Of a stretch of 64,000 nt of DNA, positions 19,636 through 56,457 are shown piece after piece. Location of the stretch: positions 390,414,001 through 390,478,000 of the forward strand of contig OZ024740.1 in NCBI GenBank assembly GCA_964016885.1, in the 5' to 3' direction. The notes below the pieces were generated by a model. It made no database searches, was not told the DNA's origin, and saw only the letters and a list, made by a program, of their open reading frames with translations. Origin of the DNA: Eledone cirrhosa. Lineage: Eukaryota. A program made the translations under genes and the position numbers. Numbering within the stretch: the stretch's first letter is position 1; each line of letters begins with the position of its first letter.

Positions 19636-19816
19636 TACACACACATACAGAGAGAGATACAGACACACACAGACATATAGACACACACCCGTATATGTAT
19701 GTATATATATATATGTAGGAGGTGAGTTTTATTGTAGTACAATAAAGCAATGCAGATATCGGATTTGAAATGCGCATAATAAAATACATGGAACTCTTTT
19801 AACCATCTTTTGATCT

Positions 19817-19895
<79 letters not shown>

Positions 19896-31650: not shown

Positions 31651-32018
31651 TTAGAGGGTACACTTAAATGTTAATCAGAGAGGAAGACGACTTCGTGTGG
31701 GTATGAAATTTGAGTTACCCGGGCCGATGTACCAGTTTCTACGATTCCGATCTACCGGCGGTGGTCTGAATGGAATCACCATATACAAAAATCAGGTAAT
31801 ATTAGTATGCATTACATAATTAGACAGGAACCGCGTCGTCAGCGAGAATTTGCCTCCCTGGACTGGAAAGTTCCGTATGACTAGCTAGTACACCATGTTA
31901 GTGGACGCAAGTGATTTAGTAGTAATCCTTAAACGTTTTGTGACGCGTGACGTCACATCAAAGGAGAAGTAAGCCAGGCGTGACCAATTTACAGGGAACC
32001 CGTGCTGGCATTGGTTCA

Positions 32019-39864: not shown

Positions 39865-40275
39865 TAACATTCTCGGTATTTTTCTATATATTTACCCCAT
39901 ATTGTTTTACTTATTGTTTCGACTTCCTCCCCCTCCCTAGTATACTTCCTTGACTTCCTGCCCTGCTGTAGTTGGCACTATCAACGCACGACTGGGTTTC
40001 CTCCACCCCCTCTTCCTTTTTCTTCTACTGGCAGGTTCAACTACCCCCCCCCCCCCCCTTCCACAAATTGCCATGATAGAATTATGTGTCTCAACAACAA
40101 ACTTTTGACCAATCCTTGTGACAATCACTTTTACCATATATGGAATTACCCCCTGAGAAGCTCGGCTATTCATATAACAGGATAAACATTTTCATTTAGT
40201 CCAGAATTAGCCGTCGAAACGGCTTGAGCTCAGCCGTCGGGGTCCTACTCGTTCCTATATATATATATATATATA

Positions 40276-43200
40276 TTAGAAAGATCGAGTATCGAAAAAT
40301 CGGCGCACGAGTTAACGAAAAACGAAATCCGATATGAGCGGCAGAGGGCTCAATAATTCAGATGAATCAGAGCTATAACTATCGTTAAAATACCGTCACA
40401 TATAGAACAAGTCTACAATCAACCATACGATTTAAAATCGATAAAGGAAGATTCGGGCCAAACAGATAAAAAATATCAATAAAACAATACGTCAATAATT
40501 TAAATGAATGTAAAATCATACCCGGACCCACTAGAAAGGTGTTAAATCTAGCTTCATGGGTTTCTGTAAATCCTTAGACAGTACTCTATCAGCTCACATA
40601 TAAATATAAAAGCCTACTAGAATAAGTGGAATGGAGTTTACGTTGTCAACGAGTTTTATCCTGGCGGCAAAGGAGTCAACTAGCGGTGAAAAACGCACAT
40701 GGCATTAGACAAGGGAGATGACCCCTATATCCGCGAAAATAATTCGAGTGAATGTGGAAATACACATATCGAATTAGAGTGCTCAATAGACATGTTAAAA
40801 TAAAACAAAAGCTATTCATCACTCAATAGAATCGACAAAATATGAGCAATAAAATTAACTGGTGGATAGCTATGTCCAGAGCTAAATATATTAGAAAGAT
40901 CGAGTATCGAAAAATCGGCGCACGAGTTAACGAAAAACGAAATCCGATATGAGCGGCAGAGGGCTCAATAATTCAGATGAATCAGAGCTATAACTATCGT
41001 TAAAATACCGTCACATATAGAACAAGTCTACAATCAACCATACGATTTAAAATCGATAAAGGAAGATTCGGGCCAAACAGATAAAAAATATCAATAAAAC
41101 AATACGTCAATAATTTAAATGAATGTAAAATCATACCCGGACCCACTAGAAAGGTGTTAAATCTAGCTTCATGGGTTTCTGTAAATCCTTAGACAGTACT
41201 CTATCAGCTCACATATAAATATAAAAGCCTACTAGAATAAGTGGAATGGAGTTTACGTTGTCAACGAGTTTTATCCTGGCGGCAAAGGAGTCAACTAGCG
41301 GTGAAAAACGCACATGGCATTAGACAAGGGAGATGACCCCTATATCCGCGAAAATAATTCGAGTGAATGTGGAAATACACATATCGAATTAGAGTGCTCA
41401 ATAGACATGTTAAAATAAAACAAAAGCTATTCATCACTCAATAGAATCGACAAAATATGAGCAATAAAATTAACTGGTGGATAGCTATGTCCAGAGCTAA
41501 ATATATTAGAAAGATCGAGTATCGAAAAATCGGCGCACGAGTTAACGAAAAACGAAATCCGATATGAGCGGCAGAGGGCTCAATAATTCAGATGAATCAG
41601 AGCTATAACTATCGTTAAAATACCGTCACATATAGAACAAGTCTACAATCAACCATACGGTTTAAAATCGATAAAGGAAGATTCGGGCCAAACAGATAAA
41701 AAATATCAATAAAACAATACGTCAATAATTTAAATGAATGTAAAATCATACCCGGACCCACTAGAAAGGTGTTAAATCTAGCTTCATGGGTTTCTGTAAA
41801 TCCTTAGACAGTACTCTATCAGCTCACATATAAATATAAAAGCCTACTAGAATAAGTGGAATGGAGTTTACGTTGTCAACGAGTTTTATCCTGGCGGCAA
41901 AGGAGTCAACTAGCGGTGAAAAACGCACATGGCATTAGACAAGGGAGATGACCCCTATATCCGCGAAAATAATTCGAGTGAATGTGGAAATACACATATC
42001 GAATTAGAGTGCTCAATAGACATGTTAAAATAAAACAAAAGCTATTCATCACTCAATAGAATCGACAAAATATGAGCAATAAAATTAACTGGTGGATAGC
42101 TATGTCCAGAGCTAAATATATTAGAAAGATCGAGTATCGAAAAATCGGCGCACGAGTTAACGAAAAACGAAATCCGATATGAGCGGCAGAGGGCTCAATA
42201 ATTCAGATGAATCAGAGCTATAACTATCGTTAAAATACCGTCACATATAGAACAAGTCTACAATCAACCATACGATTTAAAATCGATAAAGGAAGATTCG
42301 GGCCAAACAGATAAAAAATATCAATAAAACAATACGTCAATAATTTAAATGAATGTAAAATCATACCCGGACCCACTAGAAAGGTGTTAAATCTAGCTTC
42401 ATGGGTTTCTGTAAATCCTTAGACAGTACTCTATCAGCTCACATATAAATATAAAAGCCTACTAGAATAAGTGGAATGGAGTTTACGTTGTCAACGAGTT
42501 TTATCCTGGCGGCAAAGGAGTCAACTAGCGGTGAAAAACGCACATGGCATTAGACAAGGGAGATGACCCCTATATCCGCGAAAATAATTCGAGTGAATGT
42601 GGAAATACACATATCGAATTAGAGTGCTCAATAGACATGTTAAAATAAAACAAAAGCTATTCATCACTCAATAGAATCGACAAAATATGAGCAATAAAAT
42701 TAACTGGTGGATAGCTATGTCCAGAGCTAAATATATTAGAAAGATCGAGTATCGAAAAATCGGCGCACGAGTTAACGAAAAACGAAATCCGATATGAGCG
42801 GCAGAGGGCTCAATAATTCAGATGAATCAGAGCTATAACTATCGTTAAAATACCGTCACATATAGAACAAGTCTACAATCAACCATACGATTTAAAATCG
42901 ATAAAGGAAGATTCGGGCCAAACAGATAAAAAATATCAATAAAACAATACGTCAATAATTTAAATGAATGTAAAATCATACCCGGACCCACTAGAAAGGT
43001 GTTAAATCTAGCTTCATGGGTTTCTGTAAATCCTTAGACAGTACTCTATCAGCTCACATATAAATATAAAAGCCTACTAGAATAAGTGGAATGGAGTTTA
43101 CGTTGTCAACGAGTTTTATCCTGGCGGCAAAGGAGTCAACTAGCGGTGAAAAACGCACATGGCATTAGACAAGGGAGATGACCCCTATATCCGCGAAAAT

Positions 43201-45231
43201 AATTCGAGTGAATGTGGAAATACACATATCGAATTAGAGTGCTCAATAGACATGTTAAAATAAAACAAAAGCTATTCATCACTCAATAGAATCGACAAAA
43301 TATGAGCAATAAAATTAACTGGTGGATAGCTATGTCCAGAGCTAAATATATTAGAAAGATCGAGTATCGAAAAATCGGCGCACGAGTTAACGAAAAACGA
43401 AATCCGATATGAGCGGCAGAGGGCTCAATAATTCAGATGAATCAGAGCTATAACTATCGTTAAAATACCGTCACATATAGAACAAGTCTACAATCAACCA
43501 TACGATTTAAAATCGATAAAGGAAGATTCGGGCCAAACAGATAAAAAATATCAATAAAACAATACGTCAATAATTTAAATGAATGTAAAATCATACCCGG
43601 ACCCACTAGAAAGGTGTTAAATCTAGCTTCATGGGTTTCTGTAAATCCTTAGACAGTACTCTATCAGCTCACATATAAATATAAAAGCCTACTAGAATAA
43701 GTGGAATGGAGTTTACGTTGTCAACGAGTTTTATCCTGGCGGCAAAGGAGTCAACTAGCGGTGAAAAACGCACATGGCATTAGACAAGGGAGATGACCCC
43801 TATATCCGCGAAAATAATTCGAGTGAATGTGGAAATACACATATCGAATTAGAGTGCTCAATAGACATGTTAAAATAAAACAAAAGCTATTCATCACTCA
43901 ATAGAATCGACAAAATATGAGCAATAAAATTAACTGGTGGATAGCTATGTCCAGAGCTAAATATATTAGAAAGATCGAGTATCGAAAAATCGGCGCACGA
44001 GTTAACGAAAAACGAAATCCGATATGAGCGGCAGAGGGCTCAATAATTCAGATGAATCAGAGCTATAACTATCGTTAAAATACCGTCACATATAGAACAA
44101 GTCTACAATCAACCATACGATTTAAAATCGATAAAGGAAGATTCGGGCCAAACAGATAAAAAATATCAATAAAACAATACGTCAATAATTTAAATGAATG
44201 TAAAATCATACCCGGACCCACTAGAAAGGTGTTAAATCTAGCTTCATGGGTTTCTGTAAATCCTTAGACAGTACTCTATCAGCTCACATATAAATATAAA
44301 AGCCTACTAGAATAAGTGGAATGGAGTTTACGTTGTCAACGAGTTTTATCCTGGCGGCAAAGGAGTCAACTAGCGGTGAAAAACGCACATGGCATTAGAC
44401 AAGGGAGATGACCCCTATATCCGCGAAAATAATTCGAGTGAATGTGGAAATACACATATCGAATTAGAGTGCTCAATAGACATGTTAAAATAAAACAAAA
44501 GCTATTCATCACTCAATAGAATCGACAAAATATGAGCAATAAAATTAACTGGTGGATAGCTATGTCCAGAGCTAAATATATTAGAAAGATCGAGTATCGA
44601 AAAATCGGCGCACGAGTTAACGAAAAACGAAATCCGATATGAGCGGCAGAGGGCTCAATAATTCAGATGAATCAGAGCTATAACTATCGTTAAAATACCG
44701 TCACATATAGAACAAGTCTACAATCAACCATACGATTTAAAATCGATAAAGGAAGATTCGGGCCAAACAGATAAAAAATATCAATAAAACAATACGTCAA
44801 TAATTTAAATGAATGTAAAATCATACCCGGACCCACTAGAAAGGTGTTAAATCTAGCTTCATGGGTTTCTGTAAATCCTTAGACAGTACTCTATCAGCTC
44901 ACATATAAATATAAAAGCCTACTAGAATAAGTGGAATGGAGTTTACGTTGTCAACGAGTTTTATCCTGGCGGCAAAGGAGTCAACTAGCGGTGAAAAACG
45001 CACATGGCATTAGACAAGGGAGATGACCCCTATATCCGCGAAAATAATTCGAGTGAATGTGGAAATACACATATCGAATTAGAGTGCTCAATAGACATGT
45101 TAAAATAAAACAAAAGCTATTCATCACTCAATAGAATCGACAAAATATGAGCAATAAAATTAACTGGTGGATAGCTATGTCCAGAGCTAAATATATTAGA
45201 AAGATCGAGTATCGAAAAATCGGCGCACGAG

Positions 45232-45234
<3 letters not shown>
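40276..45234 (-). repeat. tandem array of 8 full 615-bp units plus a ~39-bp partial unit, retrozyme-like
   Basis: Unit starts at 40276, 40891, 41506, 42121, 42736, 43351, 43966, 44581 and 45196. Units are nearly identical (one A->G noticed at 41660). (TA)n on both sides. Confidence 0.97.
40520..40654 (-). ncRNA. variant hammerhead ribozyme (U3-A8 core, extended stem II), repeated every 615 bp through 44825-44959
   Basis: Minus strand: ACTCG TTGACAA C GTAAA(C)TCC [59 nt] GGATTTAC A GAA ACCCA..CTAGA..TCTAG TGGGT C^CGGGT. Confidence 0.65.
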
Positions 45235-45263
<29 letters not shown>

Positions 45264-45397
45264 CTTTATCCCGGGTTCAATCGGGTGTAACAACAGTAAG
45301 TAAGGTACTCAATACAAAGCAGAGTATAAATATTTAATATAGAAATGGGTTCTACAGGACTAGAACTGTTTAATTCGGGAGAGATCATCATCATCAT

Positions 45398-55106: not shown

Positions 55107-55537
55107 CCTCACACACATAGTGTCTTGATATGGGGCTTAATTCCTCAGCAGCCAATGCCAACTTCTTTTTCCGTCTTTCCAGGGTCTTCACTCTATTTTT
55201 ATAAACTATTCTTATAGCATCTCTGCGCTTCAGCACATCATCCTTTATACTTATACTTTATAATTATAATTTTATATATATATGTATATATATGTAGGAG
55301 GTGAGTTTTATTAATTTGAAGTTTTATTGCTCACTACAGCATTTTCCATTTTTCCATTTTTCCATTTTCCTCATATTATTGGCCATAGAAACTATATTTT
55401 TTTATACATAATAATATTACCATTAGGAAATTTTTGTAAACATATATACTTTTTGACGTTAGATATCTTCTTCCTTAAATTCTCTTTTTTCTTCTCTCCT
55501 TCGGTGCTCGTTTTAAACCTATTATTTACTTTTACAT

Positions 55538-55723: not shown

Positions 55724-56291
55724 ATTATTTACTTTTACATATTACAATACATAAAAACAAACTTAAACCCTAACTAATTCCTCTAAGTTCATAATTCATT
55801 TATTCTTCTCCTTCTCTCACATTATATCCTTAATATTATTAATATTTTTATTTTAATAATACATATTAATAATTTTTTTCGCACATATTATTAAACCCTT
55901 CAATATATAAACCTTTAATACTATTCTTAATTCCTTTTTCTTTAATCATAAACATCAACATCAATAAACCTCATTAACTCTTAATTTCAAAATCTTTTTA
56001 AATTATCTATTATCTTCCAACGGTTTTTTTAATTTCTCTTTGTGAGTCAATGTTTTTCTCAGTTGTAAAGGCTATTTCTCTCTCTCTATCACTCATTTCT
56101 CCTCCTCTCTCATCCTTCCTTCTTATACTCCTCCCACTTCATCCTTTATTTTCTTTCTTCCTCTTCCTTACCATTTCCTACCCCCCTCCTTTTTTTCCCA
56201 ATCTCATATATCCATCTCATTTTATTTTTCATATGTTGATTTAAAACTTCACTGCTCACAAGTGTTTTTTAAACTTCATATCATGTTTCCC

Positions 56292-56362
56292 TATTTTATC
56301 TGATGAGAACGCAAATATCATCCCATGATGATATTTGTTTTTGAAATGCGCATAATAAAATA
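56292..56362 (+). ncRNA. type I hammerhead ribozyme with long stem II
   Basis: TATTTTAT CTGATGA GAACG CAAATATCATC CCAT GATGATATTTG TTTTT GAA ATGCGCAT A^ATAAAATA. Confidence 0.7.
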
Positions 56363-56397
56363 CTTGGAACTCTTTTAACCATCTTTTGATCTTATAT

Positions 56398-56457
<60 letters not shown>

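Follow-up and report, generated by a model that had tools for sequence, protein, structure and literature searches.

How do eight almost identical copies of a non-coding sequence come to lie head to tail between two plain (TA)n tracts? The question is raised by a stretch of 64,000 nucleotides from Eledone cirrhosa (GenBank assembly GCA_964016885.1, contig OZ024740.1, positions 390,414,001 to 390,478,000), here called the window, in which positions are counted from the first base. The initial annotation of the window proposed that this array was reverse-transcribed around a large circular RNA. The array proved to belong to a young, mobile, non-coding element with more than 750 recent insertions. 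By sequence-level criteria, the family is of the non-LTR retrozyme type (LTR, long terminal repeat), and retrozyme insertion with copying from a circular template is probably the best explanation of the array.

A dispersed family of tandem insertions

The array (40271-45234; the RNA sense is the minus strand) comprises 8.07 units of 615 bp. Units 1 to 8 run from 40276 and are followed by 39 bp of a ninth unit, which is 5'-truncated at the last base, 45234; the 615-bp periodicity can be traced leftward as far as 40271. The sole mismatch among the eight units is an A>G change at 41660 in unit 3. The GC content of the unit is 0.36; the longest ATG-initiated open reading frame (ORF) has 47 amino acids, and the longest stop-to-stop run has 62 codons. 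The initial annotation had correctly described the eight near-identical units with a ninth of about 39 bp, the lack of any ORF of 60 or more amino acids, and the (TA)n borders (40256-40275 and 45233-45262). The (TA)n target and the fixed 3' junction of the RNA occupy 40256-40276, the presumed start of reverse transcription, and ATATAT microhomology is found between this target and an AU-rich site inside the unit itself. The variable 5' junction lies in the (TA)n tract at 45233-45262, and also shows TA microhomology.

An exact 32-mer search of the genome returned 1704 matches to the unit. Exact matches were also found for the (TA)n-junction end (751, identical to that in the window) and for the internal unit-unit junctions (1426), and the controls gave 0 in each case. 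These counts exclude a single locus or an array inflated by the assembly, the two objections foreseen at the outset, and the predicted dispersal of arrays in TA repeats was confirmed. The family is multicopy and has no LTR structure; tandem copies 100% identical to the window unit occur on many contigs (24 of 394 candidates were scored). For the youngest subfamily, 113 arrays or array parts were retrieved, with unit numbers per array taken from the genome assembly. An older subfamily of 610-bp units shows 79-86% identity. More distant relatives, obtained by profile search and then in bulk (1546 further core motifs, overlapping slightly with the earlier count), are 59-83% identical to the window unit. 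Two arrays of older subfamilies, of about 38 kb (G000:C1:81709810-81748189) and at least 18 kb (G000:C1:150104741-150123319), consist of interleaved variants; these much longer arrays were probably expanded at the DNA level.

A predicted hammerhead ribozyme with a variant core

The minus-strand RNA carries a type I hammerhead that is predicted to cut itself. In unit 1 it lies at 40520-40654 (minus strand), and it recurs every 615 bp. Stem I is formed by 40654-40650 with 40524-40520. The variant core UUGACAA (U3 to A9; 40643-40649) shows the conservation pattern of a hammerhead in 21 of 21 sequences, and is followed by an extra C at 40642, stem II (40641-40633 with 40573-40566, carrying an insert of about 60 nt), an extra A at 40565, GAAA at 40564-40561, stem III with 40529-40526, and C17 at 40525. 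Self-cleavage is predicted at GUC|CGGGU, between 40525 and 40524, and truncated 5' ends cluster 0-24 nt 3' of this site. The hammerhead alignment upholds the cut position given earlier, and together with the period it predicts a cut-to-cut monomer or circle of 615 nt (40525-41139, minus strand).

The alignment comprises 21 complete, non-redundant copies picked by hand from 27 representatives, six incomplete or mis-anchored ones being excluded. Aligning the distant relatives brought out two features: a helix that co-varies, and a GUUGA that never varies, 80 nt upstream of GAAAC. Invariant in all 21 copies are U3, U4, G5, A6, A9, G12, A13, A14, A15.1, U16.1 and C17. N7 is unconstrained (6/6/5/4 across the copies), and position 8 is only A or G, the 3-8 pair being U-A in 16 copies and U-G in five. 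Pairing was found in 91.5% of the cells across these divergent copies, a level reached by 0 of 500 shuffles; slid controls gave 22-52%. Stems I, II and III were paired in 93, 79 and 100%, and four pairs, in stems I and II, have changed on both sides. A model built in this analysis (R1) matches 8 of the 8 window units. Conservation and covariation thus bear out two proposals of the initial annotation: that each unit carries one minus-strand hammerhead, and that the ribozyme is a variant; its core is UUGANRA. Elsewhere in the window, a weak R1 match on the minus strand (31708-31855; 18.4 bits, E = 0.054) is possibly an old relic.

The minus strand of the unit folds more stably than shuffled sequences (z = -3.75), unlike the plus strand (z = -1.16), and the hammerhead is the minimum free energy fold of the isolated window motif. 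A downstream GCCCG (40454-40458, minus strand) is an alternative partner of the 3' strand of stem I, and is predicted from covariation and folding to lock the ribozyme. This helix, whose downstream strand reads GCCCG or ACCYG, co-varies (CAGGU with ACCUG in distant subfamilies); its central pair is formed in 31 of 31 sequences, with four compensatory changes. In the predicted circle the lock helix is dominant (P about 0.85).

Several other assignments were rejected. The box CUGAUAGAG, 30 nt upstream of GAAAC, was considered as the core; however, seven of the 21 relatives have G in place of its U4 (GCGGAC), the neighbours of the box vary freely and its stem II is not kept, while the true core UUGACAA lies about 80 nt upstream. 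A hairpin ribozyme has two loops: loop A, in which AGAA faces N|GUC and which separates helices 1 and 2, and loop B. In the unit, ACCC pairs directly with GGGU, so that there is no loop A, and no Rfam match was obtained (for the hairpin layout see PMC8216279). The permuted ribozyme forms described in the accessible text of PMC10085705 are not applicable to this element, and a genome search for a canonical-core ancestor returned only an unrelated dispersed family.

A second conserved box, NUGAUGAAU, lies at 40816-40822 on the minus strand; it reads GUGAUGA in the window and CUGAUGA in many relatives, and NUGAUGA is present in 17 of the 25 sequences that cover it. Opposite a YGAG (40770-40790), it looks like one half of a hammerhead, or like a box C. 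Reading CUGAUGA...GAG as a hammerhead or a K-turn gave no consistent fold (the window reference being offset by about 20 nt).

A second tandem family, with units of about 310-320 bp, also inserts into TA (L056:2659-5259; L033:8523-8838; L273, L281, L282 and L284). The L056 locus holds five identical units and an inverted pair. One branch of this family has a UUGAAAA...GAAAC...GUC|CAG motif, which resembles the UUGANRA core; model R1 gives it no score.

Array ends, array variation and the proposed circular template

The initial annotation expected arbitrary start and end points. This holds for the right end, the 5' end of the RNA, which is the only one that varies; the left end is fixed. Of the 19 arrays picked by whole-unit similarity, 18 share one starting base after (TA)n; the remaining one borders a gap in the assembly. 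In the older subfamily, picked by an internal motif, the same left end was found in 26 of 28 arrays (one lies about 20 nt further, and one was unread), and 62 of 72 loci of the older subfamilies terminate in a shared motif followed by (TA)n. Permuted start points, which had been predicted, were not observed; there is a single fixed junction with (TA)n. This junction is not the ribozyme cut: it lies about 254 nt further 3', where an AU-rich stretch has microhomology to (TA)n. Target-primed reverse transcription characteristically leaves a fixed 3' end and truncated 5' ends, and the one fixed end points to target-primed initiation inside the RNA. The adjoining domain (40276-40415, minus strand) is the most conserved 3' domain, and likely serves as a protein-binding or initiation region, as far as conservation indicates.

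The 5' ends were studied in 106 complete cases, of which six were re-called by hand; arrays cut by an edge or a gap were dropped, as was one inverted arm. TA occurs within 6 nt of the 5' end in 70 of the 106. Phases 225-249, a 25-nt interval immediately short of the cut, contain 17 of these ends (scan p = 0.0004); the majority of the 17 are 5-24 nt short of it, and one (L063) is exactly at the cut. In a consecutive sample from chromosome 1, 11 of 35 sub-monomer copies end within the peak, versus 4 of 50 longer ones (Fisher p = 0.008). The older subfamilies show the peak again, with 17 of their 59 informative ends located 12-45 nt past the cut. The peak fits linear monomers that would start at the cut; a transcription start there would leave the same trace.

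Variation within arrays is 0.043% per site (91 variants in 344 units), compared with a mean of 11.6 differences between arrays. The 50 arrays compared carry 28 haplotypes, which are arranged as a ladder. Private array-wide variants were found in 9 of 34 arrays with at least four units (two are majority calls at mosaic sites), and no variant is common to two arrays at the same unit index. Three of the 50 arrays have private mosaic single sites. In L047+048, C304A is present in units 5, 9, 10, 12 and 13 of 13 (reported as non-adjacent), and the array terminates at base 303; at position 381 of L031 the bases are T, G, A and A, and L132 shows three alleles across 576-582. Miscoding by 8-oxoguanine gives C>A on the complementary DNA strand, as from an oxidised G, and C304A fits an oxidised G on one template. 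Sites that flip between units, and a stop at the mosaic site, would be simply explained by a reverse transcriptase (RT) repeatedly circling one damaged RNA ring. Changes confined to one unit have a strand bias of the kind that RT wobble errors would leave: A>G outnumbers T>C by 14 to 1 and C>T outnumbers G>A by 10 to 3, with a combined p, after correction for composition, of 0.003 over all arrays and of 0.01 over the young ones. The private array-wide variants, the mosaic sites and the uniformity of the arrays make reverse transcription around a circle, as first proposed, the best model.

The cycle might proceed as follows. Array transcripts would cleave themselves by the hammerhead into 615-nt monomers, and a monomer could be ligated into a circle that is locked by the downstream helix. 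An endonuclease would nick (TA)n, and priming from the nick would take place at a single AU-rich site inside the RNA, some 254 nt 3' of the cut. From linear monomers, copies of at most about 254 nt would then result; circles would yield arrays of up to 20 or more units with one haplotype. The circle would be copied repeatedly into (TA)n sites by a borrowed RT of a Penelope-like element (PLE), which is the likeliest enzyme.

A candidate driver, and only a candidate, is P0001, a very young Penelope-like family of the same genome that inserts into (TA)n and has an intact ORF of 821 amino acids. By its motifs it appears to be Penelope/Hydra-like, with a C-terminal endonuclease; a Pfam search of the protein returned 0 families. 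At least 150 copies are 99-100% identical in the RT core. P0001 has a minimal hammerhead in its pseudo-LTR (pLTR) and frequent inversions; it joins (TA)n at two ends, which are about 90 nt apart. One copy is L062:1529-3994 (G000:C1:1139128-1141593), and termini are also present in the window at 56232-56401, 19710-19821 and 55289-55312. Inverted 5' copies, which are typical of PLEs, were found at L038, L139, L200 and L279. The best alignment between the unit and P0001 has E = 0.72 (blastn) or E of at least 4.3 (profile). A GATCTT end motif shared by the two was discarded, being not kept in the older subfamily.

A number of observations weigh against this interpretation. In the ribozyme, all 21 copies have the extra A before G12, and C11.1 is not directly followed by G12; Rfam gave no hammerhead match at the gathering score or at E up to 10. 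Stem II is paired in only 78.6% of cells, and stem III is invariant and hence gives no covariation. Because the sequences are related, the shuffle counts cannot be read as probabilities. When 30-480 nt of the natural upstream sequence is included, a competing upstream hairpin is predicted to be favoured over the active fold by 2.4-4.2 kcal/mol, and P(stem I) is at most 2% in the longer contexts; cleavage may therefore be partial or protein-dependent. The lesion signal comes from three arrays at the assembly level, for which gene conversion or assembly error are alternatives, and a generous chance expectation of same-site double changes is 0.26. The mosaic older-subfamily array of about 38 kb (C1:81.71-81.75 Mb) indicates that DNA-level expansion probably also occurs. 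The youngest subfamily has few inversions (1 of 106), the candidate driver many, and no autonomous element sharing sequence with the unit was found among the approximately 12 PLE loci compared.

Other templates and mechanisms have to be considered against the same data. The same element and ribozyme might have been copied without any circle, the template being a linear read-through transcript of an existing array, multimeric and cleaved in part. The fixed end, the 5' cluster and the strand bias fit this equally well, and the active fold is predicted to be disfavoured in context; 18 of the 50 arrays have one haplotype and could derive from one master array; and unprocessed RNA was the main in vitro substrate for a Poseidon element, according to the accessible text of PMC11167929. 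However, linear copying can only shorten, yet arrays of 9-20 units hold private array-wide variants; no position-specific variant is common to two arrays, and multi-allelic mosaic sites within one array would be unexpected. A linear template is thus unlikely, although it keeps some weight. The RNA 5' end near 40524 might also be a transcription start or a structural RT stop, with the hammerhead-like fold an inactive relic or a binding site. The shortfall of most ends and the helix that begins at this point would agree with this, as does the observation that 8 of 9 predicted elements showed no cleavage in Li, Clavereau & Pollet 2026 (bioRxiv 10.64898/2026.07.22.740005; accessible text). Conservation nevertheless tracks the hammerhead core exactly (N7 free, the 3-8 pair kept, 13 core positions invariant), and the cluster is more pronounced among first-pass ends than among later ones, contrary to what a simple stall would produce; the probability of a mere start or stop is accordingly low.

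Two further mechanisms operate on DNA. Monomers could retrotranspose and the arrays then grow in the manner of a satellite, by duplication through unequal exchange. Local amplification is discussed in the accessible text of Li et al. 2026, adjacent units share a few variants in L146, L118+073 and L059, and the 38-kb mosaic array is an example from the older subfamily. Such growth is very improbable as the general explanation, given the strand bias of single-unit changes, the presence at many loci of arrays in which 15-18 units show no more than three differences, and the end of L047+048 exactly at its mosaic site. Helitrons have a 5' TC and a hairpin-CTRR terminus. A Helitron-like DNA rolling-circle element with a fixed nick site and read-through tandems would account for the one fixed end, the tandem copies, and the hairpin-CTAA sequence that immediately precedes the internal junction at the unit end; but 0 of 106 arrays end at CTAA, there is no 5' TC, and the conserved hammerhead on the opposite strand, the ends clustered at its cut, the inverted copies and the RT-like errors leave this mechanism hardly any probability.

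A pattern scan of metagenomes gave 0 matches. No sequencing run listed as RNA was met; among four of seven runs, one of unrecorded type yielded a single self-closing contig of 645 nt (615 + 30), with about seven differences and no flank; it was not counted, because a tandem as well as a circle yields a closed contig.

Within the window, each flank of the array (40150-40258 and 45262-45395) is the terminus of another high-copy repeat, joined to TA and also present in fold-back copies; 76 and 40 matches were obtained among the loci compared. With such termini on both sides, the (TA)n tract is a nesting site. On the minus strand, open frames at 2-695 and 642-1209 resemble the C-terminus of a non-LTR retrotransposon and a fragment of a Tc1/mariner-type transposase.

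Relation to known retrozymes and Penelope-like elements

Metazoan non-LTR retrozymes have been described by Cervera & de la Pena 2020 (PMC7229834) and Li et al. 2026; the comparisons with published systems given here refer to the accessible text of the sources. Like these retrozymes, the present element is a non-coding, low-GC tandem with one type I hammerhead per unit, is dispersed, has no LTR, primer-binding site or polypurine tract, and co-occurs with PLEs. The unit size of 615 bp was initially taken as a sign of novelty, but published consensus lengths range from 51 to 972 bp (Li et al. 2026). The differences lie elsewhere: the core has U3-A8/G8 instead of CUGANGA, stem II has its insert of about 60 nt, and stem III is long and self-standing. 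A blocking helix like the co-varying one found here is given in PMC7229834 for plant retrozymes and viroids, and not for most metazoan retrozymes. Homology to a PLE pLTR, as in the retrozymes of Li et al. 2026, was not found among the approximately 12 PLE loci; for the fixed internal initiation site and the truncation peak at the cut, no description for metazoan retrozymes was met in these sources.

The ribozyme core resembles the hammerheads of the Cercyon PLEs from Schistosoma mansoni (PMC4209133), which also have the covariant U3-A8 core, an unpaired base between A9 and G10.1, a G10.1-C11.1 pair and a 5-bp stem I. The Cercyon hammerheads are minimal, dimer-type and mostly single copies; whereas the present element forms tandems of about 600-nt units and has a full stem III, a much larger stem II and the extra A before G12. 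The insertion pattern is also PLE-like. PLEs and their non-autonomous derivatives, such as MRC1 of Chlamydomonas (PMC8557442), have in common with the element a fixed 3' end, 5' truncation, head-to-tail and inverted 5' copies, and microsatellite or AT-rich targets; initiation inside the RNA was shown in vitro for Poseidon from Anolis (PMC11167929). Unlike this group, the element has one start site instead of two, no 'tail' in the youngest subfamily and no ORF. No autonomous family with a common 3' end was found for it.

A circular RNA template for the transposition of retrozymes and Penelope has been proposed since 2014 (PMC4209133; PMC7229834), and the mechanism of retrozymes is still called unresolved in the 2026 preprint of Li et al. 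The literature searched contained no retrozyme with a UUGANRA core and a lock helix, although subscription papers and supplements may already describe the repeat or the core; outside these, no comparable genomic evidence for rolling copying was found. A broader view, for which the case falls slightly short of even, is that of a still-active superfamily producing thousands of viroid-like circles of about 600 nt, in which each array would record how a telomerase-related RT made repeated passes around one RNA ring, with the chemical damage to that ring included; truncations would record the ribozyme cut.

This young and abundant family shows in a genome the footprints expected of the circular-template model, and it makes the model testable by supplying exact coordinates for the cut site, the priming site and the lock helix. 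An RT able to run 15-20 times around an RNA circle (more than 12 kb) would be of technical interest. The ribozyme escapes Rfam and CUGANGA-based screens, and similar families may therefore be hidden in other animals. If the interpretation is true, these arrays would be direct genomic evidence for circular-template mobility of Penelope and retrozymes, and the retrozymes of animals would have been undercounted.

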